Source of the DNA: an uncultured Candidatus Saccharibacteria bacterium
GTDB lineage: Bacteria > Patescibacteriota > Minisyncoccia > Sungbacterales > HO2-52-23
NCBI GenBank assembly: GCA_964585475.1
Contig: CAZPDF010000005.1
Coordinates: forward strand, 3,323 to 67,322
DNA length: 64,000 nucleotides
Reading direction: 5' to 3'
Position numbers and translations under genes: made by a program. A model generated the notes under the pieces. The model worked only from the letters and a program-made list of their open reading frames with translations, had not been told where the DNA came from and did no database searches. Below, in pieces: positions 3,346 through 59,972 of this stretch (the first letter of the stretch is position 1; the number at the start of each line of letters is the position of its first letter).

Positions 3346-4383
3346 CTATATGAACGTGGCTCCTAAAAGATCAGGATGCCCCAGAAGAAATGCCTGTGTC
3401 TCTATACTCTTTTTCCCCTCAAGTTTGAGTTTTTTTACAAGAAGTCCTCCTTTGCCGCACTTTACGAGTATCACGTCTTTTTGCTCGCCCGAGATATAAC
3501 CCGGAGAGCCGGCCGGAATATCATCTCGAACCGTATCTGCCTCCTCGATCTTAATGCGGCAGATTTTTTCCCCAGATGGCCAGATGGTCCACGTTCCTGG
3601 CCACGGATTGAAAGCGCGAACCATCCGCTCGATTTCTTCTGCTGGCCGCGACCAATTAATTCTGCCGTCGTCTTTTTTAAGAATTTTGGAATAAGTCGCT
3701 TGGGAATCGTTTTGTGGTACCGGCGTAATCTCTCTCCTGATCCATTTTGGTAGCGTTTCAATTAAAAGCTCTGCCCCCAATTTCGCCAGCTCATCGTGTA
3801 GGGTTTTGTAATTTGTAATTTGTAATTTGTAATTTTCCAATTGTCGCCATGCGACAATTGGACCGTGATCCATCTGTTCATCCACTTTTATGATCGTTAC
3901 TCCGGTCTCCGTATCGCCTTTAAGAATGGTGTATTGAATCGGCGAAGGCCCGCGCCAACGAGGGAGGAGGGAGGGATGAATGTTCAAGAACCCGAGTTTC
4001 GGAATTTCTAGAATCTCTCTTAGAATAATTTTTCCGTAAGCCGCTACAATACAAAGATCCGGCTGAAGTTCTGAAAATTCTTTCGCAAAAAAAGGATTGG
4101 ATTTCAACGTTTCCGGCTGAAAAACCGGAATTTTACCCCGCACCTTTTCTGAACTGCGCTTCGCGCGAGAATCTACTGGTTCAGAAAAGGTGCGGGGTTT
4201 ATGTTTCTCGGCAAATACCTTCACCGGCGGGGGAGTGAGAATCTGTTTTCGGCCAACCGGCTCATCAGGATTTGTTACCACGGCAACAATGTTACAGCCA
4301 GCTTCAATAAGCGCCTCAAGCGAGGGAAGCGCAAATTCCGGCGTACCCCAGAAAATTATTTTAATTTCTTTTACCTGCGTCAT
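3346..4383 (-). CDS. fmt: methionyl-tRNA formyltransferase
   Basis: IIFWGTPEFA...VVTNPDEPVGRK, NIHPSLLPRWRGPSPIQ and the C-terminal domain are present. It is paired with def. It contains two unusual in-frame inserts (see repeats). Confidence 0.9.
   Translation of the reverse strand: MTQVKEIKIIFWGTPEFALPSLEALIEAGCNIVAVVTNPDEPVGRKQILTPPPVKVFAEKHKPRTFSEPVDSRAKRSSEKVRGKIPVFQPETLKSNPFFAKEFSELQPDLCIVAAYGKIILREILEIPKLGFLNIHPSLLPRWRGPSPIQYTILKGDTETGVTIIKVDEQMDHGPIVAWRQLENYKLQITNYKTLHDELAKLGAELLIETLPKWIRREITPVPQNDSQATYSKILKKDDGRINWSRPAEEIERMVRAFNPWPGTWTIWPSGEKICRIKIEEADTVRDDIPAGSPGYISGEQKDVILVKCGKGGLLVKKLKLEGKKSIETQAFLLGHPDLLGATFI
3804..3838. repeat. heptanucleotide microsatellite (ATTTGTA)x4-5 inside fmt coding region
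   Basis: The sequence ttttgta atttgta atttgta atttgta attt is seen directly. It encodes NYKLQITNYK in the Fmt interdomain linker. Confidence 0.8.
4135..4198. repeat. perfect 20-bp-arm palindromic element inserted in-frame in fmt
   Basis: The arms accccgcaccttttctgaac / gttcagaaaaggtgcggggt surround a 24-nt loop. The element encodes the extra segment SEPVDSRAKRSSEKVRGKIP, absent from typical Fmt. Confidence 0.8.
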
Positions 4384-4550
4384 GTGACACTTTTTATATT
4401 TCTTCCCAACAACGTTCTTACATTCTCAAGTATGTTGGTATGTTTTTATCTCCCATGACACATTTTATATTTCTTTCTGGACTATTCGCTTATTCGTACG
4501 AATAAGCGAATAGTCTCCCACATCGCATGACACTTTTTATATTTTTTTTC
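4381..4550. repeat. def-fmt intergenic array: three ~25-bp direct repeats (catgacacWttttatatttctt) at ~73-bp spacing plus a perfect 32-bp palindrome (4482-4513)
   Basis: Copies lie at about 4381, 4454 and 4526. The first contains the fmt ATG. The palindrome is ctattcgcttattcgta|cgaataagcgaatag. Confidence 0.7.
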
Positions 4551-7203: not shown

Positions 7204-8529
7204 ATGATGAAGAGGGGATCAGTTGATGAGGTTATTTATTTTATCGGCATTGGCGGCATAGGAGTATCCGCCCTTGCTAAATATTATCTTTCTACTGGTG
7301 CTAAAGTAAGCGGCTCGGATTTGGTATCTTCCGAAAACACTGATGAGCTTAAGAAATTGGGCGTAGCGATACGAATAGGCAAGCAAGCGAGAAAAAATTT
7401 GCCAAAAGACGTTACGTTTCTTATTTATACCGCCGCCACGCCGCGCGATAACCCGGAACTGCAGGAGGTACGCCGGAGAAAGCTTAAAGTTCAAAGTTAT
7501 CCCGAGGCAATAGGGGATCTTACCAAGCGATACAAGACCATAACCGTATCCGGCGCCCACGGGAAAAGCACCACGACTGCTCTGGCCGCGCTGGTGCTTG
7601 AAGAAGGATATTTTGACCCTACCGTTATTGTCGGAACGCGGGTGAAGGAATTTGGCAATTCAAACTTCCGCCTGGGCCGCGGCTCGCATTTGGTTCTTGA
7701 AGCCGACGAGTGGAACAAATCGTTTTTAAAGTATGCTCCCCAAATCGCTATCGTGACGAATATTGATGCGGAGCATTTGGATACGTATAAAACAGTTGAC
7801 GCGGTGGAGCGCGCATTTGCCGAGTATCTGGGGAAGGTGCCGGCGGAGGGCGCGATCATTGCCAATCGCGATGACCGGCGGCTTGCCAAAATCGCCAGAA
7901 AATTCGGTAAGAAGGTGATATGGTATTCGCGAGGTGACGAGGAGGCCGGTGCCATGAGGCATTTTCTGCGAGTGCCCGGAGAGCATAACGTCGTAAATGC
8001 GCTGGCCGCATTGCGGCTGGGTCAGGTCCTCGGAATACAGTCGCCCTCGATTTGGCGCGCCGTATCGCGCTTTAGCGGTACGTGGAGAAGGTTTGAATTT
8101 AAAGGGATTTCGAAGGGCGCTTTTATTTTTACCGATTACGGGCATCATCCATCGGAAATTCAAGCGACGCTATCTGCCGCGAGGGAGCGTTTTCCATTCC
8201 GGCGCATATGGTGCGTATACCAGCCGCATCAGTATCAGCGCCTCGCTTATTTATGGGACGATTTTATTGGCGCATTTGACATGGCGGACCGTGTATGTCT
8301 GCTTCCTGTTTATGATGTTGTCGGGCGGGAGACGAAGACGGCAAAATCGCGGGTGAGTTCCGAAAAACTTGCGCATGCGATTGCATCGCGCGGCAAGGAC
8401 GTCTATTACCATACATCTTTTGCTCAAGCGAAGTCATTCATAGATTCCAAGATCCGCCCCGGAGATATCCTGCTTATTATGGGAGCGGGCGACATCTATC
8501 AACTGACAAATCAGATAACGGCGCACTGA
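7204..8529 (+). CDS. murC: UDP-N-acetylmuramate--L-alanine ligase
   Basis: GIGGIGVSALAKYY, GAHGKSTTTA (P-loop), and Mur ligase middle and C-terminal domains are present. Confidence 0.9.
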   Translation: MMKRGSVDEVIYFIGIGGIGVSALAKYYLSTGAKVSGSDLVSSENTDELKKLGVAIRIGKQARKNLPKDVTFLIYTAATPRDNPELQEVRRRKLKVQSYPEAIGDLTKRYKTITVSGAHGKSTTTALAALVLEEGYFDPTVIVGTRVKEFGNSNFRLGRGSHLVLEADEWNKSFLKYAPQIAIVTNIDAEHLDTYKTVDAVERAFAEYLGKVPAEGAIIANRDDRRLAKIARKFGKKVIWYSRGDEEAGAMRHFLRVPGEHNVVNALAALRLGQVLGIQSPSIWRAVSRFSGTWRRFEFKGISKGAFIFTDYGHHPSEIQATLSAARERFPFRRIWCVYQPHQYQRLAYLWDDFIGAFDMADRVCLLPVYDVVGRETKTAKSRVSSEKLAHAIASRGKDVYYHTSFAQAKSFIDSKIRPGDILLIMGAGDIYQLTNQITAH

Positions 8530-9329
8530 TGAGTAACGTAGAAATAAAGAACCACCAAATAAATATTAAGGGGCTTAATGTCTATTACAGAACCGCAGGC
8601 GATTCAAATAACTCGCCCGTAATACTATTAAACGGCTGGGGCGCACGGACTACAGGCTTTTTACTGGGAAGCGACAAGGTTATTAGAGAGTTAGTAAGGC
8701 ACCGATTTTACGTGTATTCTCCCGAACATCCGGGCCTTATGCGTTCCGAGACGCCGAAAGAGATTTGGGGATTTAAAGAATATGACGAGTATCTTGAAGA
8801 GTTTATCCAAAAACTCAACATTAAAAATTTTATTCTCATCGGTCAATCATTTGGCGGAGCAGTGGCAACGGCTTATGCTGCCGAGCATCCATCGGATATA
8901 AGGGTACTGGTTCTAGTAAGCGCTGGTCTCTCAAGTGATAAATTGCATGGGTTTCTCTTCCGCCATCTTTTATATGGGAAATGCTTTAGTTTAACCCTCC
9001 GATCAAAATTTGTATTAAAAACAGTTAAGAAATTGTTTGCATCGGCAGTTCTTGGAATACCGTGGAGTCATTTGGAAAAAGAGAACTTGGAGAACCGAGC
9101 AACTATGGGCGAGATCTTTTCGCAGTGGTCGTTAGAAAATATGTATAAAAAGGTAACAACCAAAACTATCTTAATCTGGGGAAAATACGATCAGTTTTTT
9201 CCTATTTCTTCAGCCCGAAAGGTGGCCACAGAGTTACCAAACGTAAGGTTATATGTAGTTAATGCCGGTCACAGCGTTCTTTACAGGAATCCTAAAAGGA
9301 CGGTTGAGCTTATAGTGAGCGCTCTATGA
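8529..9329 (+). CDS. alpha/beta-fold hydrolase
   Basis: GQSFGG nucleophile elbow with the fold pattern. The start overlaps the murC stop (ATGA). Confidence 0.7.
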   Translation: MSNVEIKNHQINIKGLNVYYRTAGDSNNSPVILLNGWGARTTGFLLGSDKVIRELVRHRFYVYSPEHPGLMRSETPKEIWGFKEYDEYLEEFIQKLNIKNFILIGQSFGGAVATAYAAEHPSDIRVLVLVSAGLSSDKLHGFLFRHLLYGKCFSLTLRSKFVLKTVKKLFASAVLGIPWSHLEKENLENRATMGEIFSQWSLENMYKKVTTKTILIWGKYDQFFPISSARKVATELPNVRLYVVNAGHSVLYRNPKRTVELIVSAL

Positions 9330-9373
9330 TTTTTTTATAGGTAAAGAACGTTTAATATACCCACAGTGGACTG

Positions 9374-9480
9374 ACCCCGTTAGAGATGCGGAATGGAGTA
9401 ACACCGGTTATATGCATGTGGCTGCAGAGCGACTCTTATCCCTTACTTCAATCTGGAATAAATCTCTAACGGGGTTGACC
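9374..9480. repeat. ~107-bp inverted-repeat element with termini gaccccgttagagat / atctctaacggggttgacc
   Basis: Seen directly. It belongs to a CCCCGTTA-terminated IR family also present at 21274, 25126 and 58607. Confidence 0.7.
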
Positions 9481-9517
9481 GCCTTTTTAATTTTTGCGAT
9501 AATTGAACTAACAATTT

Positions 9518-10747
9518 ATGTCAGAGTTTGATTGGAGGCGTTACACCAAGGCCATAAGCATACTCGTCGCCCTGCTCCTTCTTGGAGCGAGTTTTTTTGG
9601 AGGGGTGTATTTTGGATATCAGAATCGCCCGGCGGTGGAGAAGGTTTTGAGCGTCGCGGGTCAAAATCCGCCTCCGCAGTTCCAGGATGTTGATTTTAAC
9701 CTTTTCTGGGACGTATGGTCACGACTTGAGCAAAAATACGTTGATAAGTCAAAAATAGACCGCCAAAACATGGTTTACGGCGCCGTATCCGGCCTGGTCA
9801 AATCGCTTAAAGACCCCTATAGCGAATTTTTGCCGCCCGCGGAAACAAAACAGTTTCAGGAGGATGTGAGGGGTTCATTTGAGGGCATTGGTGCCGAGAT
9901 CGGGATGCGCAAGGGGATTCTTACGATTGTTGCTCCCTTAAAAGATAGTCCTGCGGAAAGAGCAGGTATCAAGGCCGGGGATAAAGTGCTCAAAATTGAC
10001 GATACGGTGACTGCTGATCTTATGCTGGATGAGGCCGTGCGTCTGATCCGGGGCCTAAAAGGGACAGAGGTGCGGCTTACCATTATCCGAGATTCATTTG
10101 ATAAAACGCAGGAATTCAAGATAATCCGCGATACCATCCGGGTGAAGGTTTTAACAACCGAAACCCGGCCGGAAGGGATATTTATAATAAAGCTGAATCA
10201 TTTTACGGAAAACGCCGCTTTTGAATTCCGCAAAGCGGTTCAGGAATTTTTTAGATCAGATTCCAAAAAAATAGTGCTGGATGTTCGCAATAACCCTGGT
10301 GGATTTTTGCTGGTTTCCGTGGATATCGCGAGTTGGTTCCTGCCGCCTGGAGAAACGGTGGCGCGCGAACGTTTTGCCGATGGCAGTGAGGATATGTACC
10401 GTTCCAGCGGCTATCGCTTGCTTGAAAAAGTCCCCATGGTGGTTTTGATAAACGAGGGGTCGGCGTCCGCATCCGAAATTTTGGCAGGGGCCTTGCGCGA
10501 TACAAAGGGGGTGAAACTCGTAGGGATGAAAACTTTCGGAAAAGGATCGGTGCAGGAGGTTCAGCCGCTTCCGGACGGTGCTTCGCTAAAACTTACCATT
10601 GCTAAGTGGCTGACTCCTAAGGGCGAGGAAATTAATGGAATTGGGCTTGAGCCGGATGTGAAAGTGGAATTGCCTCCGGCCGAGGAGCAGGACCCGAAAA
10701 TAGATCCGGTTTTGGAGAAAGGGATTGAGGTGCTGAAAGGATTATAG
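9518..10747 (+). CDS. ctpA: carboxyl-terminal processing protease (S41 family)
   Basis: N-terminal TM, a PDZ domain (GIKAGDKVLKIDD), NNPGG, and the LINEGSASASEILAGALRD catalytic Ser region. Confidence 0.85.
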   Translation: MSEFDWRRYTKAISILVALLLLGASFFGGVYFGYQNRPAVEKVLSVAGQNPPPQFQDVDFNLFWDVWSRLEQKYVDKSKIDRQNMVYGAVSGLVKSLKDPYSEFLPPAETKQFQEDVRGSFEGIGAEIGMRKGILTIVAPLKDSPAERAGIKAGDKVLKIDDTVTADLMLDEAVRLIRGLKGTEVRLTIIRDSFDKTQEFKIIRDTIRVKVLTTETRPEGIFIIKLNHFTENAAFEFRKAVQEFFRSDSKKIVLDVRNNPGGFLLVSVDIASWFLPPGETVARERFADGSEDMYRSSGYRLLEKVPMVVLINEGSASASEILAGALRDTKGVKLVGMKTFGKGSVQEVQPLPDGASLKLTIAKWLTPKGEEINGIGLEPDVKVELPPAEEQDPKIDPVLEKGIEVLKGL

Positions 10748-11826: not shown

Positions 11827-11906
11827 CTTTACGAATTACGAATAAGTATGAAGGTATGAATAAAAATCCAGATTCGTAAATTCGTAGAAATTCGTATTTC
11901 GTAAAG
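11827..11906. repeat. MITE-like element with TIRs ctttacgaaWtacgaat...aattcgtatttcgtaaag (copy 1)
   Basis: It fills the acyP-rplI spacer and shares both termini with the 32068-32220 copy. Confidence 0.75.
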
Positions 11907-13713: not shown

Positions 13714-15360
13714 ATGTCAAGATACATTTTTGTCTGCGGCGGGGTGATGTCCGGAATCGGAAAAGGAGTGGCTACCGCTTCCATCGGTCGGATTTTAAAA
13801 AGCCGCGGATTCCGGGTTACTGCCGTAAAAATTGATCCTTATTTGAATGTGGATGCAGGCACCATGAACCCCATTGAACACGGGGAAGTTTTTGTTACGG
13901 AAGACGGCATGGAATGCGATCAGGACGTGGGGAATTACGAACGGTTTCTCGGCGAGAATATTCCTAGAGAGAACTATATGACGTCCGGATCGATTTACCA
14001 AACGGTGATTGAGCGGGAGCGGAATTTGGAGTATGACGGGAAGTGTGTGCAGATTGTGCCGCACATCCCGGAAGAAGTTATTAGGAGGCTTGACCGCGCA
14101 AGCAAGAAAGCCAAAGCCGATTTTACGGTGGTAGAGATCGGAGGGACGGTCGGGGAGTACGAGAATATATTATTTCTTGAAGCAGCCCGCATGATGCGTC
14201 TTGCGCGTCCGGGAGAGGTGCTTTTTGTTTTGGTCTCCTACCTGCCTATTCCAAGCATGATTGGCGAGATGAAGACCAAACCGACCCAGCACGCGGTTCG
14301 TGCTATGAACGCTGCGGGGATCCAGCCGGATGTCATTATTGCGCGCTCGGTCGTGCCTATGGACGAGCCGCGGAAGAGAAAATTGGCGGTTTTTTGCAAC
14401 GTATTGGAGGAGGATATAATTTCCGCGCCGGATATTAAGTTCATTTACGAGGTGCCGGTAAATTTTGAAAAGGATGATCTGGGGGATAGGATTTTAATGA
14501 AGCTTGGGTTGCGGGCAAGAAAGCGTGACCTCGGCGAGTGGCGGGAGATGGTCAGGCGCATTAGGCGACTCAAGAAGTCGGTTAAAATAGGCATAGTCGG
14601 AAAATATTTCGGAACGGGCGATTTTATACTTAAGGACTCTTATATTTCGGTGATTGAGGCGGTCAAGCATGCGAGCTGGCATCACGGACGGGCGCCCGAG
14701 ATTCAATGGCTTGATGCGGAAAGTTATGAGAAAAGCGCCAAGGCGCTTGAGGAAATTAAGTCGTTTGACGGCATTATTGTGCCGGGCGGATTTGGGAGTA
14801 GAGGAGTGGAGGGGAAAATCAAAACAATTGAATTTTGCCGCAAAAATAAAATTCCTTTCCTCGGACTTTGCTACGGTTTGCAGCTTGCGGTTATCGAATT
14901 TGCGAGAAACGTCTGTGGACTGCGAGGGGCTCATACCACCGAAGTGAACCCAGAGATAAAATACCCGGTGATTCACACGATGCCGGAACAAATGGTGAAT
15001 ATTCGCGAGAAACATATGGGCGGATCCATGCGGCTCGGGGCATATAAATGTAAATTACGGGAGGGGACTATCGGTTTTCGCGCCTATGGATCAAAGTCAA
15101 TTTCCGAACGGCATCGCCACCGCTATGAAGTTAATAACGAATACCGGCACCGTCTCGAGAAAAAAGGGATGATATTTTCGGGGATTAATCCGGAGCGAAA
15201 CCTTGTAGAAATCGCCGAATTAAAGGATCACCCCTTTTTTCTCGGAACGCAGTTTCATCCAGAATTTAAGTCAAGGCCATTAGAACCTCACCCGGTCTTC
15301 AAAGAGTTTGTTAGGGCCGCAGTAAGCTGCCACAGCAAAAATAACGTACCTCTTAGCTGA
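13714..15360 (+). CDS. pyrG: CTP synthase
   Basis: MSRYIFVCGGVMSGIGKG N-terminus, synthetase domain, and a C-terminal GATase domain with GLCYGLQ. Confidence 0.95.
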   Translation: MSRYIFVCGGVMSGIGKGVATASIGRILKSRGFRVTAVKIDPYLNVDAGTMNPIEHGEVFVTEDGMECDQDVGNYERFLGENIPRENYMTSGSIYQTVIERERNLEYDGKCVQIVPHIPEEVIRRLDRASKKAKADFTVVEIGGTVGEYENILFLEAARMMRLARPGEVLFVLVSYLPIPSMIGEMKTKPTQHAVRAMNAAGIQPDVIIARSVVPMDEPRKRKLAVFCNVLEEDIISAPDIKFIYEVPVNFEKDDLGDRILMKLGLRARKRDLGEWREMVRRIRRLKKSVKIGIVGKYFGTGDFILKDSYISVIEAVKHASWHHGRAPEIQWLDAESYEKSAKALEEIKSFDGIIVPGGFGSRGVEGKIKTIEFCRKNKIPFLGLCYGLQLAVIEFARNVCGLRGAHTTEVNPEIKYPVIHTMPEQMVNIREKHMGGSMRLGAYKCKLREGTIGFRAYGSKSISERHRHRYEVNNEYRHRLEKKGMIFSGINPERNLVEIAELKDHPFFLGTQFHPEFKSRPLEPHPVFKEFVRAAVSCHSKNNVPLS

Positions 15361-20325: not shown

Positions 20326-21327
20326 ATGATAAAACCCGTCCTTCAATATCTAACCGATTTTCTTACCTTCTGCGAGGTTGAGAAAGGACTTACTCCGACC
20401 ACGGTCAAAAACTATGCCCGTTTCTTAAATAAATTTTTTATCTGGCTTGAGAAGAATAACTTGAGCAATCTTACTCCTGATAAACTTTCCGAGGATATAA
20501 TTTGGAAATATAGAGTTTGGCTTTCCCGCTTGCCCAACATGGTGCGCCATGCCTCCCGCGGGCTTAGTCCGTCCACCCAGTCGCGCTATCTAATTGCGCT
20601 ACGCGCCCTCCTGGCCTATTTCCACGAAAAAGATATACCATCTCTGCCTACCGAGAAGATCAAGCTGCCGAAAGACCGCGAACGGCAAGTCAAATTCTTG
20701 GATTTAGAACAAGTTGAAAAATTGCTTGTTTCACCCAATACCTCCACCCTTACCGGCATGCGGGACCGGGCGATACTTGAAACCTTGTTTAGTACCGGGG
20801 TTCGCGTATCTGAACTTATCTCCCTTGACCGGAAACATCTGGTTGGCTCCAAGGGCAAAAAAGATTTTGAAATGAGTGTGGTTGGCAAGGGCGGGTATAT
20901 CCGGACGATTTATTTTTCCGAAAGGGCCATCTTTTGGATACAAAAATACCTTGCGGCACGCAAGGATGAGGAGCAGGCTCTATTTATAAGAATTAGGGGC
21001 CCTAAAAATGCCTCCCCCACCAGATTAACGCCTCGGGGTATAGAGCTTATCGTAGAAAAATATGCCAAGTTGGCCGGCCTTTCCATTCTGGCTACGCCGC
21101 ATACACTGCGTCATAGTTTTGCCACGGATCTCTTGAATCAGGGAGTTGATTTGCGAACCGTGCAGGAATTCTTGGGGCACCGCAATATCGCAACTACTCA
21201 AGTGTATACGCATGTGACAAGTAGACGCCTTCGCGAAGTCCATCGCAAATATCACGGCGGGAAAATGCTTCATCCCGTTAGAGAAAAACACCGCAAACCA
21301 TTTTTGGTTTCAAATAATTTGATATAA
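20326..21327 (+). CDS. tyrosine-type site-specific recombinase (XerC/XerD/integrase family)
   Basis: N-terminal SAM-like domain. The catalytic R...HTLRHSFAT...GHRNIATTQVYTHV with Tyr is present. The C-terminal extension and stop are supplied by an IR element. Confidence 0.85.
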   Translation: MIKPVLQYLTDFLTFCEVEKGLTPTTVKNYARFLNKFFIWLEKNNLSNLTPDKLSEDIIWKYRVWLSRLPNMVRHASRGLSPSTQSRYLIALRALLAYFHEKDIPSLPTEKIKLPKDRERQVKFLDLEQVEKLLVSPNTSTLTGMRDRAILETLFSTGVRVSELISLDRKHLVGSKGKKDFEMSVVGKGGYIRTIYFSERAIFWIQKYLAARKDEEQALFIRIRGPKNASPTRLTPRGIELIVEKYAKLAGLSILATPHTLRHSFATDLLNQGVDLRTVQEFLGHRNIATTQVYTHVTSRRLREVHRKYHGGKMLHPVREKHRKPFLVSNNLI

Positions 21328-21375
21328 AACATCCCTTTAATCCTAAATTTGATTTGTCTGTTTTTCTCTAACGGG
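21274..21375. repeat. ~100-bp element with perfect 15-bp terminal IR cccgttagagaaaaa / tttttctctaacggg overlapping recombinase 3' end
   Basis: Seen directly. Arm 1 encodes the last residues and stop of the recombinase. Confidence 0.75.
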
Positions 21376-21392
21376 ATTCATAGCTGATTCCC

Positions 21393-23563: not shown

Positions 23564-23599
23564 TCACTAAAGTTTTGACGATCGTCAAAACTTTAGTGA
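23564..23599. repeat. perfect 36-bp palindrome tcactaaagttttgacga|tcgtcaaaactttagtga
   Basis: Seen directly between the terminator and the gltX 3' end. Confidence 0.8.
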
Positions 23600-23641: not shown

Positions 23642-25108
23642 TCATGTCTTATAAAAGTTTTTCGCTTTTGCTAGACGTTTCAGCGTTTCCTCGACTCCCA
23701 AAACCTCCATTATCTCAAACGGCCCCGGAGACGTTTTTTTGCCGGTGAGGGCAACGCGGAGAGGCCAGAGGATTTGTCCCCTATCCCCGCCTTCGCCCTT
23801 CAGGCTACGGCGGGCAAGCCCTCCCCCGATTTCTTCAAAGAAAGTTTTTTCAAGATTCACCTTATTGAAGTCCGACTTGGGTATGGCCGCTATGATCTGT
23901 AGAGATTTATCAAGCGAGGCACCAATTTCTTCATCCGTCATATTTTTCCAGCGCAAAAGTTCCTTATCATATTCGGGGGTTTTGAAAAAATAATCGGTCT
24001 TCGCTTCGAGTTCGGATAGTTTTTTCAACCGCGGCTGCTCAAGGGCTAGTATCTTTAAAACATAGCCCTGGGGCTTCTTGGCCGCCGGGAGAAAAGGGTG
24101 CGCCCATTTTAAGAGTTCCTCGGTGGATAAACTTCTAATGTATTCTGAATTCATCCAGTCGAGTTTCTGTACATCGAATATCGCGCCGGATTTCTGTACT
24201 CTACCCAGGGAAAATTTTCTAGTTAGCTCCTCTTTGGTGAAAATTTCACGATCATCTCCCGAGTTCCAGCCAAGAAGAACCATAAAATTTAAGAGCGCCT
24301 CTGGAAGATATCCCGCCTCCCGATATTCAATAAGGGAGGTTGCGCCGTGGCGTTTGGAGAGTTTGGAGCGGTCCGGGCCGAGGATTAAGGGAAGATGCGC
24401 ATACTGCGGCATTCTGAAGCCAAGCGTCTCGATAAGTAGCATCTGCTTAGGAGTGTTTGAAATATGATCTTCGCCGCGGATCACGTGCGAAATTTGCATT
24501 TCTTCATCGTCCACCACTACAGCAAAATTATAAAGAGGAACATCCGTGCGCTTAGCAATAGAAAAATCACCCAAAAGGTCTGATTCAAAACTAACCTCTC
24601 CGCGGACAAGGTCTTGAAATACGATTTTTCGTCCGGCAGGAGTTTTGAAACGGATAATATAATCCTCCTTGGCTTTAGTAAGAATTTCTGCTTCTTTCGG
24701 GTCGAGAGTTCTGTATTCACAAAGATGCAGGGGCGGTTTTTTGGCTTCGAGCAGTTTTGCTTTTTCCTCCTCAAGTTCTTTTTCTGAATGAAAACAAAAA
24801 AACGCCTTTCCTTCTTTACGGAGTTTCTCGCAATATTTTTTATAAGTTTCTATCCGCTCGCTTTGGCGGTACGGCCCGTATGGGCCGCCCTTTTCTGGAC
24901 TTTCGTCGGCCTCTATTCCTAGCCATTTAAGGCCTTCAAAAATATCCTTCTCGTATTTTTTATCCGAGCGCTCAAGATCGGTATCCTCAATACGCAACAC
25001 AAAAACGCCGCCATGTTTTTTGGCAAATAAATAATTAAATAATGCAGTCCTTGCAGTACCAACATGTAATGGGCCAGTTGGGCTTGGGGCAATACGTACT
25101 CTAATCAT
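23642..25108 (-). CDS. gltX: glutamyl-tRNA synthetase
   Basis: MIRVRIAPSPTGPLHVGTARTALFNY (HIGH) and KLSKRHG (KMSKS-type) motifs. The start is reassigned to the internal Met at 25108. Confidence 0.9.
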   Translation of the reverse strand: MIRVRIAPSPTGPLHVGTARTALFNYLFAKKHGGVFVLRIEDTDLERSDKKYEKDIFEGLKWLGIEADESPEKGGPYGPYRQSERIETYKKYCEKLRKEGKAFFCFHSEKELEEEKAKLLEAKKPPLHLCEYRTLDPKEAEILTKAKEDYIIRFKTPAGRKIVFQDLVRGEVSFESDLLGDFSIAKRTDVPLYNFAVVVDDEEMQISHVIRGEDHISNTPKQMLLIETLGFRMPQYAHLPLILGPDRSKLSKRHGATSLIEYREAGYLPEALLNFMVLLGWNSGDDREIFTKEELTRKFSLGRVQKSGAIFDVQKLDWMNSEYIRSLSTEELLKWAHPFLPAAKKPQGYVLKILALEQPRLKKLSELEAKTDYFFKTPEYDKELLRWKNMTDEEIGASLDKSLQIIAAIPKSDFNKVNLEKTFFEEIGGGLARRSLKGEGGDRGQILWPLRVALTGKKTSPGPFEIMEVLGVEETLKRLAKAKNFYKT

Positions 25109-25308
25109 GGGGAAAGAGCGGCCCGCCCCGTTAGATATTTGGTAAAACCAAAATCTAACGGGGTAAATGCAGTACCGATGTGCAGTGGGCCGGTTGGACT
25201 TGGAGCAATACGGCAACGAATGGTTGTGATTTCCTTCATGTCTTGAGCCTGATGAACAATAAGATTTCCGCGCATATCAGCGTTAAGCGGCATGGCAGGG
25301 AATAGCAA
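25105..25308 (-). other. upstream leader ORF duplicating the GltX N-terminus (..IRCRIAPSPTGPLHIGTA..), stop overlapping gltX ATG
   Basis: Tandem duplication of the gltX 5' end (25169-25239 against 25054-25108), separated by a ccccgttagat...atctaacgggg hairpin (25126-25163). The TGA stop overlaps the gltX ATG as ATGA. Confidence 0.5.
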
Positions 25309-30883: not shown

Positions 30884-32065
30884 TTAGCGCCCTATCAACG
30901 CAATGGCCATACCTATAATTGCGGCCACTACGCTAATCACCCAAAATCTCATCGTGACTTTATACGGAGGCCATCCCAGGGCCTCAAAATGATGATGGAG
31001 GGGCGCTATAAGAAACACCTTTTTTCCGCGAAAACGCTTGGATGCGAATTGGATGATGTCAGACACAACTTCAGCCATCAGTATAAGGCCAATAATGGGC
31101 AGAACCACGACCGAATCGGTAAGAAAGGCAACTACAGTGAGAGAGGTGGTAAGTCCGAGGATGCCCGATTCCCCCATATAGAAGCGGGCCGGAGGGATAT
31201 TGAACCAAAGAAAGGCAAGAATGGCTCCGAGAATGACGGCGGCAAATGCGGCCACATCAATCTGTCCTCTGAAAAATGCTATACCCGCATAGGCCGCAAA
31301 AGCGGAGGCAAAAACCCCGCCTGCCAAACCGTCAATGCCATCCACGATGCTGGAAGAAAAAAGCAGGATCATGGTGAATATAAAAAGCGGTATGTACCAA
31401 AGGCCTAGATAAAGATCTCCGAAGCCGGGGATATAAATGGCCCGCCAATCAAGCTTGAAATAAAACCACCAGGCGCCGGCAGCGGCAATGAGAAATACGA
31501 CCAAAAGCCGGTGGCGGAATTTTACCCCCCCACCTTCCTGGATGCCTTGCCTCCATGGCTTAAGAACGGCTAGGAGCTTGCGAGTAAAAGAAATTTTGGG
31601 TGTGACTTCGTTTGAAAAGGTGGGGGGGTTTATTCCCCCGGCAACATATCCGCCGCGTCCGTACACTTGCAAGAGATCGTCAACTAATCCTAAAACGGAA
31701 GCGGCGAGAAGTATAAATAACGGAAGCCATGTCTGATTTCTTGAAAGAAAATTTGCTTTATCCCAAAATGAACTATCGGTGGCGTAGGCCACAAGCCAGA
31801 TAATAAGCGCCAAGGCAATGGTGGTTGCCCAGATGAGCACCCCGCCCAGACGCGGCACGCTAACCTCGCGATCTTTATGCAGGGCCGCAAACAAAGGGGT
31901 TTGAGATCCGTCCGGAGACAGCGTACGCACTTCTTTCCGCCAGAGCTTATGGGTATAGAGAAATTTGGTAAGAAGCGGCGTCCAAAGAATGGCCAAGACG
32001 AAAGATACGGCGGAGAGGCCGAATACTTTGATGACGCTTACAATGTTGTTAACTTGGGACTCCAT
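30884..32065 (-). CDS. mraY: phospho-N-acetylmuramoyl-pentapeptide-transferase
   Basis: Polytopic with a DGIDGLAGG motif. The N-terminal region has the typical cytoplasmic loop. Confidence 0.9.
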   Translation of the reverse strand: MESQVNNIVSVIKVFGLSAVSFVLAILWTPLLTKFLYTHKLWRKEVRTLSPDGSQTPLFAALHKDREVSVPRLGGVLIWATTIALALIIWLVAYATDSSFWDKANFLSRNQTWLPLFILLAASVLGLVDDLLQVYGRGGYVAGGINPPTFSNEVTPKISFTRKLLAVLKPWRQGIQEGGGVKFRHRLLVVFLIAAAGAWWFYFKLDWRAIYIPGFGDLYLGLWYIPLFIFTMILLFSSSIVDGIDGLAGGVFASAFAAYAGIAFFRGQIDVAAFAAVILGAILAFLWFNIPPARFYMGESGILGLTTSLTVVAFLTDSVVVLPIIGLILMAEVVSDIIQFASKRFRGKKVFLIAPLHHHFEALGWPPYKVTMRFWVISVVAAIIGMAIALIGR

Positions 32066-32067
32066 AT

Positions 32068-32220
32068 CTTTACGAAATACGAATTAGTACGAATTTACGA
32101 ATTCTCCGGAACCGACATACGAATAGATTAACACGGTTCCGGTTACGAATAGTTCGTACCCGAACGCCCAGATGCGTATACGGCGTTAGGTACATCCGTA
32201 AAAATTCGTATTTCGTAAAG
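32068..32220. repeat. MITE-like element with TIRs ctttacgaaatacgaatt / aattcgtatttcgtaaag (copy 2)
   Basis: Perfect 18-bp TIRs. The internal ccggaaccg...cggttccgg IR exactly fills the mraY-dacA spacer. It shares termini with the 11827-11906 copy. Confidence 0.8.
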
Positions 32221-33189
32221 CTAAAAACTTTCTTCGAGCCACTGAATCAGTTTTCTTCCGTCTTCGAATCTATCCTCCGATCCAAGAATGATGATGGCGG
32301 CGGCCCCGCGCGGCCTGACAGGATAGATAAGAAGCAGTGCCCCTTTCGCTTCATCGGTGAAGCCGGTTTTTCCTCCAAGGATGGCCGGAAACTCTTTCAG
32401 AAGGATATTGGTATTGAACAGAGAATATTCGCGTCCGGATACGGAATAGATTTTTGTTTCTATATTTCGTGAAATTTCCCAGATTTGGCGGTGATTATAC
32501 CACGCGTATTCCGCGAGGTCTGCCAAGTTCTCCACTGTGCTAAGGTGACTCTCTTCGTCCAAGCCGGTCGGATTCCGGAAGGAGGAATTTCTCATTCCAA
32601 GCACACGAGCGCGGTTATTCATCAGATCGACAAAGGTTTTAATCCGATCTTCAAACGTGCCGCCGCCCTTATTTTCGCCCGCGGCTTCAGCCAAGGCCAG
32701 GGCGGCGTCGTTAGCGGAATTGATCAAAGCAAGGCGTATGGCATCATCACGGAAAAAAATTTCTCCGGCCGGTGCCGCGCTCAATTTCGGCTCGGCACGA
32801 AGTTTCGAGTCATTTGAGAGACGGATTTTATCGGTCGCCTCCAATTCCTCTCGCGCAACAGCGGCAGTCAAAATTTTGGTCAAACTTGCCGGGGCAAGAC
32901 GTTTTTCCGGACGCCGTGACAGAAGCGGGCGAATATCTCCGAAGAGACGGACCAAATACGCTTCTGCATCTATATTCGGCTCCGGGATATTTTTTTTCAC
33001 CGTTGGAGTTTCTTCCGCCGTTGCGACGGCTGTGTGACGCGATTCTCTAGGCAGGTTTTCGTCTCTTGAGTAGTAGTTGAAACCTCCGTGGAGTGCGGAG
33101 AGAAGAACAGGCACGCTTATAAGAAGCCCCAGAGTTTCGATTATAATCCGGCGTTTTTCAAATGGATCGCGAGGCACCAAAAAAACCAT
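32221..33189 (-). CDS. D-alanyl-D-alanine carboxypeptidase (S11 family serine peptidase)
   Basis: SxxK (ASLTK), SxN (SAND) and KTG (KTGFT) motifs with an N-terminal TM. Confidence 0.8.
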   Translation of the reverse strand: MVFLVPRDPFEKRRIIIETLGLLISVPVLLSALHGGFNYYSRDENLPRESRHTAVATAEETPTVKKNIPEPNIDAEAYLVRLFGDIRPLLSRRPEKRLAPASLTKILTAAVAREELEATDKIRLSNDSKLRAEPKLSAAPAGEIFFRDDAIRLALINSANDAALALAEAAGENKGGGTFEDRIKTFVDLMNNRARVLGMRNSSFRNPTGLDEESHLSTVENLADLAEYAWYNHRQIWEISRNIETKIYSVSGREYSLFNTNILLKEFPAILGGKTGFTDEAKGALLLIYPVRPRGAAAIIILGSEDRFEDGRKLIQWLEESF

Positions 33190-33255
33190 GATTAGGCGTT
33201 CTCCTTATCTTTACCCGGTAGTAGTCGTCGACAACATTCGTCTTTTGTCGAGCAC

Positions 33256-33822
33256 TCAACGTATTGAGTGCTCGACAGTCGAAGAGTTACTACCGGGCTT
33301 AGTTTCAAATATTTCCATCTTTTCTTTTTCAAATTCGGTAAAATGCGGCAGTTCTTGAATGCGAGTAACCCCGAGATACTTCAAAAATTCGGCACCTACG
33401 CTATAAAGATACGACCGGGCGTCTTTGGGGTTATCTATCCGTTCCACCAGCCCCCGCATTAAAAGATTTCGAAGGGTAAAGGATGAATTAACGCCCCGGA
33501 TGTATTCAACCTCGGCTCGGGTCAGCGGCCCCTTATAAGCGATAATGCTCAAGGTCTCCAAAGCCGCTCGGGAAAGTTCTTCCGTAAACTCGTTTTTTAC
33601 GAGATCCTCCACATAGCGGGAATTTTCCGGACTTGAACCGAGCTGCCATTTGTCTTCATGGCGGATTAGCGTAAAACCGCGATTGGCATAGTCCCCGGCA
33701 AGTTCTTCAAGGGCGGAGACCACCTCTTCTTTTTTTGCTTTGGTGATTTTGGCAAGCTTTTCCAAAGCCAGCGCCTCCCCGTGGACGAAAAGAATTGTTT
33801 CGAGTATGGATTTAAGGGCCAT
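33256..33822 (-). CDS. scpB: segregation and condensation protein B
   Basis: ILETILFVHGEAL winged-helix signature in 188 aa, adjacent to scpA. Confidence 0.85.
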   Translation of the reverse strand: MALKSILETILFVHGEALALEKLAKITKAKKEEVVSALEELAGDYANRGFTLIRHEDKWQLGSSPENSRYVEDLVKNEFTEELSRAALETLSIIAYKGPLTRAEVEYIRGVNSSFTLRNLLMRGLVERIDNPKDARSYLYSVGAEFLKYLGVTRIQELPHFTEFEKEKMEIFETKPGSNSSTVEHSIR

Positions 33823-36076: not shown

Positions 36077-37699
36077 TTACTTTTGTCGAATAGGCAATTC
36101 TATAAAAAACGTGCTTCCCTTCCCCACCCCCTCTGACTCGGCCCCAATCCATCCTCCGTGGTCCTCCACAACTCGTCTCGCAAAATATACACCGAGTCCC
36201 ATGCCTTCCGGATCTACTTTTCTCGATTCTTCAGTTCGAAAGAATTTAGTAAATAGACGCTCCTGGTCAACCTCTTTTAGACCGATGCCGCTATCGCGAA
36301 TGCTTACCCTCGCAAGATTTTTTCCATCTCTCGTGGTTTTTTCTACCCGAATATGGATCTCTCCCCCATTCGGAGAATATTTTATGGCATTATCCGTGAG
36401 GTTATTGATGGCTTCCCGCACTTTATCGGAATCGAATAAAAACGGTTCTATTGGTGCGGCTTTATCAACCGTAAGGGTAAGGTTTTTTTTCTCAGCCAGG
36501 GGCCGAAATTCTTCTGCCACGCTTTCTACTACGCTACTTATATTATGCTCGATGAATTTGTAGCGTATGGTACCGGCTTCAATGCGAGAAAGATTAAGAA
36601 GGTCCGTGACAAGTTTTACCAATTGGTTGGTTGAAAGAAAAATTTTTCTTATCGCATCTTTTGCCCCTATGCTCAAATTACCGAGTGTTCCTTCAGCCAG
36701 TACCGAAGAATATCCCCGGATGACGGTTAAGGGAGTCCGCAACTGATGGGACGCTACGGAAATGAATTCTGACTTTGCCTGATCAAGCCGCAGGAGTTCT
36801 TCGTTGCTTTTCTCAAGCTTTTTTGCCAGTTTGCTAATATGCTCTTTATCCCGTACTTCTTTTACACTTGCCCGTATAAGCAGCATGCCAACCATAGTGG
36901 AGATTATCAGGATAGAACCATTGATGAGCATTTCCGCATTATCGCGGCTTAGCAGAAACCTAACTAAAAGTATAAGGGAAAGCAAACTAACAAAAATTTC
37001 TACCGCAATTATTTTTACATTCAAAAGATTATGGCGGATAATTGCAAATCCTATGAAGCTTACCATGATAAGCGTACTTATGGGCCCCATAAAAATATAT
37101 TGATGCGTGGAAAATTGCGTAAGGAAAACATTGGTAATACCGGAGATAATCGAGGTGGCGAGAGTTCCCAGGATGACCAGAAGAATTTGAGTTTTAATGC
37201 TTTTCTCGACGGATTCATAGTAATTTTTTATGAGTCGCCGAAAAGCGTCTCCGAGGGTGATGACAAAAAATAGAATATAAAGGGAATGTAACGGGCCCAG
37301 AGCTATAATTTTATTAGGTGATGCAAGGTTAGAGATTCCTACGATGAAGCCCGGAAGAAAGAGAGCAAGACAAATATTGAGAAAACCGCCAATCAAGATT
37401 ATGTTGCGAAGACGTTTTGGGACGACAGACAACGGCGATCCGAAATAAATTGCAAAGTGCCAGAAACTTGCCATGATAATAACCCCCGCAATAAAGGAAG
37501 CGGCAAGACTGTAGAATGCAACCGAGGACTCGGTGGTGAAACGAAGAGAAATAATTGCTACTACCCAAAGTATAATTCCCAGGACGGTAATGGCGTAACT
37601 TATATCCGCGCTTTTTCTTGGTCCGTGAGCAAAAATAATGATAGCAAGGAGTACGTTTACTACTCCGGCCATGACAAGCAGGATTGAAATTGTATCCAT
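36077..37699 (-). CDS. sensor histidine kinase (multi-TM sensor + HisKA + HATPase_c)
   Basis: Six or more TM helices, an ASHQLRTPLT H-box, and N, G1 and G2 boxes (DNAIKYS, DSGIGL, GMGLGV). No adjacent response regulator. Confidence 0.85.
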   Translation of the reverse strand: MDTISILLVMAGVVNVLLAIIIFAHGPRKSADISYAITVLGIILWVVAIISLRFTTESSVAFYSLAASFIAGVIIMASFWHFAIYFGSPLSVVPKRLRNIILIGGFLNICLALFLPGFIVGISNLASPNKIIALGPLHSLYILFFVITLGDAFRRLIKNYYESVEKSIKTQILLVILGTLATSIISGITNVFLTQFSTHQYIFMGPISTLIMVSFIGFAIIRHNLLNVKIIAVEIFVSLLSLILLVRFLLSRDNAEMLINGSILIISTMVGMLLIRASVKEVRDKEHISKLAKKLEKSNEELLRLDQAKSEFISVASHQLRTPLTVIRGYSSVLAEGTLGNLSIGAKDAIRKIFLSTNQLVKLVTDLLNLSRIEAGTIRYKFIEHNISSVVESVAEEFRPLAEKKNLTLTVDKAAPIEPFLFDSDKVREAINNLTDNAIKYSPNGGEIHIRVEKTTRDGKNLARVSIRDSGIGLKEVDQERLFTKFFRTEESRKVDPEGMGLGVYFARRVVEDHGGWIGAESEGVGKGSTFFIELPIRQK

Positions 37700-43885: not shown

Positions 43886-44146
43886 CCCGTTTTTTCCTTA
43901 AGCAGGTTATTTGATATTTTACGATATTTTCTGATATAATGCAATAGCAGGAAATTCGGGCCTATAGTTCCGACCTTCATTAAAGTTATATAGGAAGTCG
44001 AGAATCCACGATTTGACCAAATGAAGACTTGGTCAAATCGGGACTTAGTGGCAGTGTCCCGATTCAATTTTGATTGAATCGAGGATGCTCGATTTTCAAA
44101 GAAAATCGGCACATCCGGTTTGTTCACCCTCCCACCTTTTATGTTA

Positions 44147-44217
44147 GGGCTCATAGCTTAGTGGTAGAGCACCCGGTTTGCATCCGGGAGATCGGGGTTC
44201 GATTCCCCGTGAGTCCA
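44147..44217 (+). tRNA. tRNA-Ala (anticodon UGC)
   Basis: Acceptor gggctca/tgagtcc with a G3:U70 identity pair. Anticodon stem cccgg/ccggg with loop ttTGCat. T-arm cgggg-ttcgatt-ccccg. Discriminator A. Confidence 0.85.
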
Positions 44218-44342
44218 TTGGTAAAGGTGGGAGGGCAAGTCCGGTAGATGGGAGTTCCTCCGATTTTGTCTGCGGTATTACCGCAGCTACAAAATCGAGA
44301 GTCCTCGATGTGGTAAATCAAATCAAAGATTTGAACCACATC

Positions 44343-44362
44343 GGGAGATTCCCCGTAGGTCC
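44343..44362 (+). repeat. partial direct duplication of tRNA-Ala 3' end (gattccccgtaggtccat vs gattccccgtgagtccat)
   Basis: Seen directly 125 bp downstream of the tRNA. It is att-site-like. Confidence 0.6.
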
Positions 44363-44474
44363 ATCGAGCTAAGATTGAGGGGGGTTGTTACCAAGCCAAG
44401 CGTTCAGACAATCCAAAAAATCGTCAAGTCGTTAGGCGTTCCTATGGAGGATTTATTAAAATAATTTTTACAAT

Positions 44475-48391: not shown

Positions 48392-50215
<1,824 letters not shown>

Positions 50216-57327: not shown

Positions 57328-57457
57328 AAAACGTGCGGCCAAGAAAAAGCGTAGAAAGTACCCCATAAGCGGGCATTCGGTTTTTCTCATTCAAAAACTG
57401 CAACACAAAACGCGTCGGTGATCACCGACGCGTTTTGTAAAGTTTTATGGTTTAATG

Positions 57458-58564
57458 CTAAAGTCCTTCTTCTTTTAATTCTTGGGCGATTTCTTTTACC
57501 TTTCGGGCGCCCTTCCGCGGGATTTCGACCTTCATCTGAATTAAAAGATTGCCCCGTCCGTACCCCGAACTCGTATAAGCGCCCTTGCCTCGCGCCCGTA
57601 GCACATCTCCGGGTTGCGTTCCTTCCGGTATTTTAAGCTTTATTGAACCGTCTAAGGTATCTACTTCTACATTATCCCCCAGGATTGCTTGAGAAAGTTT
57701 TATCGTAAGCAGCATGATTATGTCATCTCCTTGCCTACGAAAAATCTTATGCGGCATAACGCGCAATTTAATATAAAGATCCCCGGGTACGCCGCCGCTA
57801 AATGATGCCTCCCCCTTCCCGGTTATTTTTAGGATCTCGCCATCCTGCACGCCTTTTGGAATAAATACTTCCAGTCTCTCCGCCGTAATCCTTGCGCCCT
57901 GCCCTCGGCAGAAAGTACATAGATTCTCAGGCCTCCTGCCGCTGCCGAGACACTCGGGGCACGCCGAAACCTGCGTAAAGGATCCGAGAAACGTTCTCTG
58001 GGTTTTTTGAATATTTCCCTTGCCCTGGCAGGTCTGGCAATTTTTCAATTTAGTGCCGGGCTCCCCGCCGGATCCTTGGCAATGTTCACAGCGCGCCATG
58101 CGTTCAAATTGAACCTCCTCTTTCCCACCCAAAACCGATTCCTCAAAAGGAATATCAAGGGGCAGGCGCACGTCCTTTCCCCTGCGCTCACGCGTTCTTC
58201 CCCGCGGAGCTGATCCCATTCCTCCACCTAAGAAATCCTCAAAAATATCTGAAAAATCAAAATCAGCAAAACCGCGGCCGTCGCCCGGCACGCCCTCGCC
58301 AAAATCAAAGCGGATTCCGCCGGGCCATTCAAATCCCCCCTGCTGGGGGCCCGCTCCCTCAAAAACGCGGCCGAATTGATCATATTGCGACCGTTTTCTG
58401 TCGTCGGCCAATACCTGATACGCCTCGTTAACCTCTTTGAATTGGGCTTCATCCCCGCCTTTATCGGGGTGGTATTTATGTGCAAGGGAACGATAGGCCT
58501 TCTTTATGTCTTCTTTGGTAGCGTTTCGCGGAACACCAAGAATTTTATAGTAATCTCCTGTCAT
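57458..58564 (-). CDS. dnaJ: molecular chaperone DnaJ
   Basis: J-domain (YYKILGV...HPDK), Gly-rich linker, four CxxCxGxG repeats, and a C-terminal domain. Confidence 0.9.
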
Positions 58565-58606: not shown

Positions 58607-58703
58607 AACCCCGTTACAACCCGACCTAAAATCTGGGGCTTCCATCTGGCTTTTTTAAAACTTTCCATTCCTCGCCGGTCTGAAAGCCGGAGTTTCCGAG
58701 TTG
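58607..58703. repeat. ~97-bp IR element with perfect 13-bp termini accccgttacaac / gttgtaacggggt in dnaJ 5' region
   Basis: Seen directly. The interior has a ccggtctgaaagccgg hairpin. It is related to the CCCCGTTA family. Confidence 0.7.
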
Positions 58704-58724
58704 TAACGGGGTGAATAAATGGAA

Positions 58725-59926: not shown

Positions 59927-59972
59927 AAAAGAATCCTAGTCAGAATCCTAGGATTCTGACTAGGATTCTTTT
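59927..59972. repeat. perfect 46-bp palindrome aaaagaatcctagtcagaatccta|ggattctgactaggattctttt
   Basis: Seen directly, immediately 3' of the dnaK stop. It may act as a bidirectional terminator or attenuator. Confidence 0.8.

Follow-up and report, generated by a model that had tools for sequence, protein, structure and literature searches.

A stretch of 64,000 nucleotides from an uncultured Candidatus Saccharibacteria bacterium (contig CAZPDF010000005.1, positions 3,323 to 67,322 of the forward strand; hereafter the window) carries four short loci with closely similar inverted ends and different interiors, which raises the question of what these hairpins are and what could have placed them there. 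A sequence-only reading had taken them for miniature inverted-repeat transposable elements (MITEs) or for elements of the repetitive extragenic palindromic (REP) type. From the analysis described here, we consider it probable that the four loci, named E1 to E4 (Table 1), are non-autonomous members of a mobile-element family of very small size, whose full-length form carries a GIY-YIG nuclease as its presumptive mover. The GIY-YIG gene is consistently linked to the arms of the elements; that the nuclease also drives their movement is what we infer from sequence.

Within the window the motif CCCGTTASA occurs at nine sites, counting both strands, against 0.90 +/- 1.04 expected, and nine or more sites were reached in none of 100 shuffles. 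Eight of these sites form the four inverted pairs that had been proposed, with perfect arms of 11-17 bp; the ninth (37287-37295, minus strand) is probably a chance occurrence, since it has no partner and lies inside a coding region. The interiors of E1-E4, said to differ, proved mutually unrelated when compared, and the fourth pair is real, although the end given for it, 58703, omits the right arm and has to be moved to 58711. All four copies fold with their arms paired (z scores against shuffles of -4.1, -8.4, -7.8 and -2.7, respectively), and exact 4-bp repeats flank two of them, E2 and E4.

The arms themselves were delimited with related elements. Among 124 relatives the modal arm measures 13 bp; in a set of 99 distinct relatives, pairing is seen at arm position 11 in 94, at position 12 in 86 and at position 13 in 77, with two-sided changes in 43, 27 and 38, respectively; at positions 14-16 only 40-46 pair, which is background. 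Covariation of the observed extent was reached in 0 of 500 shuffles. Since pairing and covariation run through position 13 and then drop, the arm is 13 bp long and comprises ten conserved bases (CCCCGTTAGA) and three copy-specific, co-varying bases, with an A-T pair usually found just outside.

The flanks carry the evidence for insertion. Flanking 4-mers are identical in 64 of the 124 relatives, in the exact register only (shifted registers give 0-3), and in 193 of 332 distinct elements (58%) of a larger set, and the target rebuilt from 87 solitary sites reads G/A-T-N-N-A-C/T (R-TNNA-Y). Furthermore, junctions composed of a right arm, four bases and a left arm are very common in metagenomes, where the scan gives a lower bound, and of 49 tandem pairs, 32 carry one and the same 4-mer at all three places, pairs of unrelated neighbours included. 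Nested copies also occur, such as a relative of E1 inside another element in L119 (fetched loci bear L numbers throughout), and within subfamilies and tandem arrays the same non-palindromic 4-mer is kept in a fixed orientation. These data show insertion as mobile DNA, accompanied by duplication of 4 bp at R-TNNA-Y sites.

Individual insertions can be recognised in the window as well. E2 is inserted two codons ahead of the stop of an XerC/D-type tyrosine recombinase gene (20326-21327), and when E2 and one TTCA are excised in silico, the recombinase ends in ...KYHGGKMLHS followed by the stop, at 317 amino acids (aa). The extended tail is absent from 119 of 120 homologues, most of which have 315-318 aa, and the closest of them ends in ...KYHGGKMLRG; comparison with these homologues thereby confirmed E2 as an insertion. 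At E1, the flanking 4-mer TTGA doubles as the start of a -35 box, and relatives of the TTGA class have TTGACA or TTGACC as right flank in essentially all cases, so copies lie exactly on -35 boxes there, like E1. No element was found upstream of the peptidase gene in the syntenic loci L123, L125 and L127, and syntenic relatives that are without E1 carry elements at other positions. A sister element with a different arm type sits in fmt, the gene of methionyl-tRNA formyltransferase, as a 66-bp in-frame insertion that adds 22 aa (KPRTFSEPVDSRAKRSSEKVRG) absent from three Fmt orthologues; where the window has TAAA-element-TAAA, the fmt gene of L123 has a single caTAAAatt, which is, by its sequence, a true empty site. 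The predicted target-site duplications and insertion polymorphism were thus both encountered, the latter for E2 and for the sister element in fmt, and the MITE-like character with terminal inverted repeats held for all four loci.

Which gene could move such elements? Arm pairs 150-900 bp apart were searched in 1.6 Mb of fetched loci, and the findings were confirmed with tblastn and by direct reading. A full-length class of 274-283 bp was found in other genomes, with the same ends and a single open reading frame (ORF) that encodes a GIY-YIG nuclease of 84-86 aa; these cassettes occupy at least nine independent loci (L046, L190, L209, L215, L251 with two tandem copies, L150, L005, L252 and L263), and the class was also confirmed in L052. 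Larger elements with the same ends were sought and discarded as a candidate: across the 1.6 Mb, nothing longer than about 283 bp stands between two arms, and GIY-YIG is the sole ORF found there. Three cassette proteins match Pfam PF01541 (E 1e-17 to 1e-16) and consist of the bare catalytic domain; NCBIfam gave only a weak match to group I intron endonucleases, and among solved structures the UPF0213 proteins BH0048 and EF2693 (1ZG2, 1YWL) come closest.

Arms and gene are closely fitted to each other. The ATG follows the left arm at a distance of 10-20 nt, and the codons of the conserved C-terminus ...R(F)LSLTG lie in the right arm, with the stop codon often supplied by a flanking TGAA or TAAA. 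The motif L[ST]LTG is present in 103 of the best 120 of at least 4,934 homologues, being terminal in 71, where the stop lies within the flanking 4-mer. Moreover, other GIY-YIG lineages (36-58% identity) go with other CCC...GGG arm families, namely ACCCTGTGAAATAA, ACCCCGCACCT... and ACTCTTCACCCC; the ACCCCGCACCT arm type is the one inserted in fmt of the window, and GIY-YIG cassettes bearing it are found in L192 and L117. Both the overlap of the right arm with conserved C-terminal codons of the nuclease gene and the pairing of each arm family with its own GIY-YIG lineage argue for co-evolution over hitch-hiking. A miniature element and a GIY-YIG cassette occur together in one metagenome-assembled genome (MAG) of the Omnitrophota (L046, L078), and in L005 the nuclease gene itself is split by a nested miniature copy. 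The 150-bp element of L240, which keeps about 33 N-terminal codons and the last few codons, is on sequence grounds an internal-deletion derivative of the cassette.

One GIY-YIG cassette lies between a YgjP-like gene and radC, beside a type I restriction subunit and a HepT/MNT toxin-antitoxin pair (L252-L261), an arrangement that recurs in many metagenome samples. The identical nucleases P0126 and P0225 were considered as multi-locus copies and rejected, each being one locus in many samples. One published study predicts that Patescibacteria have been a source of horizontally transferred GIY-YIG genes (PMC12455944).

Members of the family are by no means confined to the genome of the window. The pair pattern CCCCGTTASA-N(65-95)-TSTAACGGGG, searched in one-genome-per-species contigs, returned at least 120 loci, and all matches listed are MAGs; the phyla among them comprise Omnitrophota, many Patescibacteria classes, Planctomycetota, Desulfobacterota/Thermodesulfobacteriota, Nitrospirota, Spirochaetia, Stahlbacteria, WOR-3, Cloacimonadota and others. 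The same 10-bp ends were found across at least 10 phyla, so the proposed family is MITE-like but not genome-specific. Carriage by phages was rejected, viral contigs holding almost no copies (no junction and three pair matches). In one subfamily the interior, too, is conserved, and this across Omnitrophota, Saccharibacteria, Sungbacteria, Nitrospirota and Desulfobacterota (L015, L018, L026, L033, L050, L085, L104, and L125 at 14933-15025); it forms a hairpin with the loop GCATTAAAC, T-loop-like on the opposite strand, and hints at a functional interior or at very recent horizontal spread.

Besides intergenic DNA, copies occupy coding sequences, and the view that they sit in untranslated regions and at 3' gene ends holds for a part of the relatives only, many of which lie in frame within genes. 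About a quarter of the copies do so. Length plus 4 is divisible by three in 135 of 307 elements, against about 102 expected; among the 70 elements that an open frame crosses, the figure is 57. Translated in frame, the left arm gives F-T-P-L-E and the right arm S-L-T-G followed by F-T, and since the arms read FTPLE... and ...SLTG in this way, such inserts would be tolerated. Recurrent neighbouring transposases or recombinases were tried as candidates without success, with a first BLAST clustering giving none and a second giving prepilin genes; indeed, the largest cluster of neighbouring proteins consists of type IV prepilin-like genes. Their copies sit at the G↓FT cleavage codons (GGN TTT ACN, that is, the target G-TTTA-C), and the insert is predicted to lengthen the leader and regenerate the prepilin peptidase site, as in L065 (MRNQQG-FTPLE...SLTG-FTLIELMIG). 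In the window, the MraY-family gene (30884-32065, minus strand) contains a 108-bp in-frame insertion amounting to 36 aa, which also belongs to a sister family. Fmt and the MraY-family protein, both with in-frame inserts, are essential enzymes.

Transfer RNA genes are a further site and also a cargo. In the fetched loci, 6 of 58 tRNA genes lie as cargo between arms, in the same architecture as in the window, where sister-family arms bracket a complete tRNA-Ala(UGC) gene (44147-44217), and three more abut an arm. Where elements abut tRNA genes (L209 3293-3573, L019 1915-2102, L066 3442-3609), the GGG of the arm forms the first tRNA bases (tRNA-Pro, tRNA-Leu) or the arm directly follows the tRNA 3' end. 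The 5' part of tRNA-Pro in L209 contains a complete GIY-YIG cassette, with a CCATCGG direct repeat that regenerates the tRNA, and the host tRNA is restored by deleting the element in L068, L093, L070 and L032. A role as tRNA introns was rejected, given that the excision points are inconsistent and most copies are intergenic; the Patescibacteria tRNA introns already reported are group I introns, distinct from these elements (PMC13011429). Short element forms also stand on both sides of an RNase P RNA-like gene (L081 1438-2034), and one precedes a 23S rRNA gene by about 20 nt (L037 6508-6553).

In the mechanism that we propose, the nuclease would recognise the arms, as duplex or as paired stem, and would cut with a 4-nt stagger at the element ends and at targets resembling the G↓TNNA↓C junction, after which ligation or repair would join the element into the target. 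Copies consisting of arms without the gene, such as those of the window, would be moved in trans. Insertions would persist wherever they do no harm: between genes, precisely on a -35 box re-created by the duplication (E1), at the very end of a coding sequence (E2), or as in-frame, stop-free inserts, including those that regenerate prepilin peptidase cleavage sites. The non-palindromic 4-mer shared in subfamilies and tandem arrays is consistent with cut-and-join via matching ends; it can also be explained otherwise, because the stop codon of the nuclease lies in the 4-mer and open frames would be selected.

Several observations weigh against this interpretation. We know of no GIY-YIG enzyme that acts as a transposase, and characterised GIY-YIG nucleases leave 3' overhangs of 1-2 nt rather than a 4-nt stagger. 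The 64-kb window holds no GIY-YIG gene, and the similarity of the E1-E4 interiors to GIY-YIG cassettes, beyond the arms, is not above that of shuffles; since the interiors show no cassette similarity, the derivative in L240 is our only basis for inferring that the window copies descend by deletion. Clean 4-bp duplications accompany only 2 of about 7 full-length cassettes. Additionally, a class with the flanks TTYA...CRRG, which includes E3 and nearly all tRNA-carrying copies, has no duplication and is not accounted for by the proposed mechanism. The nuclease could therefore be a passenger rather than the driver.

A conventional transposase would offer another origin. The copies might be ordinary MITEs of a DDE transposase family (IS1380/piggyBac-like) with 4-bp T..A duplications and CC... 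ends, for which the GIY-YIG ORF would be one passenger among several, like the tRNAs. The TNNA duplication and the 13-bp arms starting with CCC do resemble these families, as piggyBac has a TTAA target and CCC... termini and IS1380 a duplication of 4-5 bp, and the cargo between the arms is indeed variable. However, in the 1.6 Mb searched the arm pairs enclosed no other ORF and nothing above about 283 bp, BLAST clustering (no HMM, that is, hidden Markov model, scan was made) yielded no recurrent transposase-like neighbour, and the fit of the right arm to the nuclease gene, repeated with a separate lineage in each arm family, would not be expected of a passenger. We consequently regard this explanation as unlikely. 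Quite unlikely, too, is conservative site-specific recombination by a host tyrosine or serine recombinase, via a small circle with the junction TCTAACGGGG-TNNA-CCCCGTTAGA, where the 4-mer would be a crossover core and not a duplication. Such a junction, with inverted arms of 13-14 bp around a short centre, does look like a recombinase core site; its abundance in metagenomes, the 4-mers shared by tandem neighbours and the non-palindromic 4-mer kept in one orientation within subfamilies all agree with it, and E2 adjoins a tyrosine recombinase gene. That recombinase is nevertheless a conserved, syntenic Sungbacteria gene present in relatives without the element, no recombinase recurs near the elements in BLAST clustering, the target flanks are without recombinase arms, and the orientation bias is accounted for equally by the stop codon in the 4-mer and by selection for open frames.

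It is highly improbable, by comparison, that the hairpins work in RNA as regulatory or processing signals of the host (as terminators, attenuators or RNase III stems) and owe their conservation to a host protein that recognises them. Stable stems with compensatory changes would suit such a role, as would the copies that flank stable RNA genes (tRNAs, the RNase P RNA of L081, the 23S rRNA of L037) and the position of E3 just upstream of the gltX start. However, flanking duplications, empty sites in orthologues, nested and tandem copies, location within coding sequences and occurrence in either orientation speak for mobile DNA, and no T-run or terminator-like site is present at or next to any of the four loci, so the suggested terminator or attenuator role was not borne out. 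Rfam was applied with gathering thresholds to the window and 18 element-rich loci, and at E<=1 around the tRNA-Ala cassette; only tRNAs, rRNA and an unrelated FMN riboswitch were matched, only tRNAs in the window, and the elements remained without a family.

With the reading of small mobile elements moved by a GIY-YIG nuclease in mind, several known systems can be compared. Bacterial MITEs, such as the Correia elements of Neisseria, ERIC and RUP, share the non-coding length of about 100 bp, terminal inverted repeats, short duplication and intergenic scatter, and are also known to insert beside or into promoter elements. They are tied to DDE or other classical transposases, lineage-specific and homogeneous in their interiors, whereas the ends described here recur in at least 10 phyla, most interiors show no relationship to each other and the sole coding partner found is an 86-aa GIY-YIG nuclease. 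Rickettsia palindromic elements (RPE) are likewise palindromic inserts that lie in frame in protein genes, essential ones included, without destroying them, as here in fmt, mraY and prepilin leaders. RPE are restricted to Rickettsia and we know of no enzyme that mobilises them; the present elements differ in having defined 13-bp arms, a 4-bp duplication and a candidate enzyme. REP sequences and their paired form, the REPINs, are also short hairpin repeats, sometimes paired in inverted orientation over about 100 bp, and a single-copy enzyme moves them in trans without target duplication. The proposed membership in this group failed, as the arms differ in sequence and contain no GTAG-type REP motif, insertion goes with a 4-bp duplication, and BLAST clustering of neighbours, made without an HMM scan, showed no recurrent IS200/IS605-like Y1 transposase, the type of the REP-associated tyrosine transposases (RAYT).

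The nuclease and the arms also invite comparison separately. GIY-YIG homing endonuclease genes (I-TevI, Seg type) and UPF0213/YhbQ-like genes share the GIY-YIG catalytic domain and a selfish, patchy distribution. Homing endonucleases have a DNA-binding domain and spread by homology-directed repair into one cognate site, without inverted repeats or duplications; the cassette protein, in contrast, is a bare domain of 84-86 aa whose gene is bracketed by inverted repeats and occurs at many unrelated sites with short duplications. Integron cassettes and their attC sites share variable cargo, imperfectly palindromic ends, lengths of 55-140 bp, tandem arrays and the core letters GTTAGA/TCTAAC. An attC identity was rejected, since the core order is inverted (GTTAGA...TCTAAC here, RYYYAAC...GTTRRRY in attC) and no integrase is linked; the elements have perfect stems with no unpaired central spacer or extrahelical bases, no IntI nearby, and are scattered among housekeeping genes. 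In sum, the elements behave as MITEs and, when in frame, as RPE, and their coding partner is of the UPF0213 type and not a classical homing endonuclease.

Whether this amounts to a class of its own is a bolder claim, which we advance only tentatively: the elements may represent an undescribed class of prokaryotic transposable element, whose sole protein is an 86-residue GIY-YIG nuclease, without DDE, tyrosine, serine or HUH transposase, and which moves between phyla, carries tRNA cargo and has ends that are read through in frame. At about 280 bp it would, to our knowledge, be among the smallest autonomous DNA transposons. A literature search for GIY-YIG cassettes bounded by inverted repeats, or for miniature derivatives of them, found no description, with incomplete coverage, so that a prior description is possible; searches on the DNA motif, the peptide motifs, GIY-YIG with terminal inverted repeats, target-site duplications or MITEs, and UPF0213/COG2827 gave nothing relevant, within the same incomplete coverage.

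The short copy E3 deserves separate mention, for its surroundings are themselves rearranged. It lies 17 nt upstream of the gltX ATG (25108, minus strand) and had been placed in the gltX leader; it does lie upstream of gltX, but between a duplicated 5' gltX fragment and the intact gene. The 5' segment is present twice, at about 25050-25095 and about 25168-25213, with about 80% identity (RIAPSPTGPLH[IV]GTA), on either side of the 38-bp hairpin. The upstream ORF of 44 codons contains a diverged second copy of gltX codons 2-19 and continues across the hairpin (A-FTPLD...YLTG-R) to a stop that shares the bases ATGA with the gltX start, an overlap suggestive of translational coupling. An identical gltX product was sought on record and none was found.

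Beyond the four loci, the window holds four elements of sister arm families (Table 1), of which the one overlapping the 3' end of scpB is a possible case and the weakest of the set. As for the surrounding genes, the nearest named relatives of the S41 peptidase and the recombinase are in Candidatus Sungbacteria (Patescibacteria), with 74-79% identity, the group to which the window, part of a metagenome contig, was assigned, and Pfam supports the neighbour genes, among others fmt, the MraY-family gene, scpB, dnaJ, gltX and murC.

Table 1. Elements and associated features of the window (positions are those of the 64,000-nucleotide stretch).
Feature	Position	Strand	Size, arms or content	Flanking bases	Surroundings
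E1	9375-9474		100 bp; 13-bp perfect arms CCCCGTTAGAGAT / ATCTCTAACGGGG	CTGA 9371-9374; TTGA 9475-9478 (3/4 bases identical)	intergenic; alpha/beta-hydrolase gene 8529-9329, S41 peptidase gene 9518-10747
E2	21273-21376		104 bp; TCCC...GGGA variant TCCCGTTAGAGAAAAAC...; 17-bp arms	TTCA 21269-21272 and TTCA 21377-21380 (exact 4-bp duplication)	
E3	25126-25163		38-bp hairpin, short form; 11-bp arms	CCCG/TAAA on + strand, TTTA...CGGG in gltX sense; without duplication	
E4	58609-58711		103 bp; arms CCCCGTTACAAC / GTTGTAACGGGG; 12-bp perfect (16 nt, 94%, one mismatch)	TGAA 58605-58608 and TGAA 58712-58715 (exact duplication)	between unannotated ORF 58725-59732 (minus) and dnaJ 57458-58564 (minus)
Sister element in fmt	4136-4197		arms CCCCGCACCTTTTCTGAAC (arm family CCCCGCACCT...), 19 bp	TTTA 4132-4135 and 4198-4201 (duplication)	
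Sister element in MraY-family gene	31525-31628		arms CCCCCCCACCTT	TTTA 31521-31524 and 31629-31632 (duplication)	
Possible sister element	33214-33297		arms CCCGGTAGTA, 10 bp	TTTA/CTTA	overlaps 3' end of scpB (33256-33822, minus)
tRNA cassette, sister family	44127-44235	+	arms CCCTCCCACCTTT, 13 bp	TTCA...CAAG	
Promoter-like site	9475..9503	+	TTGACC-17-(TG)GATAAT		directly abuts E1
ORF upstream of gltX	25105..25239	-	44 codons, MKEITTIRCRIAPSPTGPLHIGTA-FTPLDFGFTKYLTG-RAALSP and stop; starts 25239		

Other repeats were noted along the way. Around the tRNA-Ala cassette lies a hairpin-rich, non-coding stretch of about 590 bp (43886-44474), in which Rfam at E<=1 finds only the tRNA; it could be a novel structured RNA or a pile of decayed elements. 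Intergenic inverted-repeat families unrelated to E1-E4, of the TTCGTAAAG / ACGAATTACGAAT type and the AAATTCTAAATCCTAAG type, are present at 11827-11906, 32065-32223 and 50057-50206, and perfect, spacerless palindromes of 34-46 bp at 4480-4515, 23564-23599, 57405-57438 and 59927-59972. Outside the window, the MAG DX4.bin27 (L011 1966-2459 and 4741-5234, L006, L045) contains at least four copies of a repeat of about 330 bp, which has its own ends TTAACCCGAAAAATGC...GCATTTTTCGGGTTAA and a 94-bp CCCCGTTAGA element at its centre; two inverted copies of it flank the gene of a 686-aa secreted protein.

If the nuclease mobilises these elements, DNA transposition would gain a new enzymatic route, and the lower size limit of autonomous elements would be set anew. 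Such a role would also explain the thousands of scattered orphan genes annotated as "GIY-YIG nuclease family protein" in Patescibacteria, Omnitrophota, Planctomycetota and Desulfobacterota, and would point to an origin for in-frame insertions that have gone unannotated in the essential genes and type IV pilin leaders of these reduced genomes, where the in-frame ends would let the element colonise prepilin leaders and loops of essential proteins without harm. The elements may, moreover, carry tRNA and other small RNA genes from one lineage to another. With the arms as a simple marker, false N- or C-terminal extensions in gene calls can be corrected, such as the recombinase tail and the long gltX ORF of the window, and the arms also mark insertion polymorphisms that could be used for tracking strains of uncultivated bacteria.

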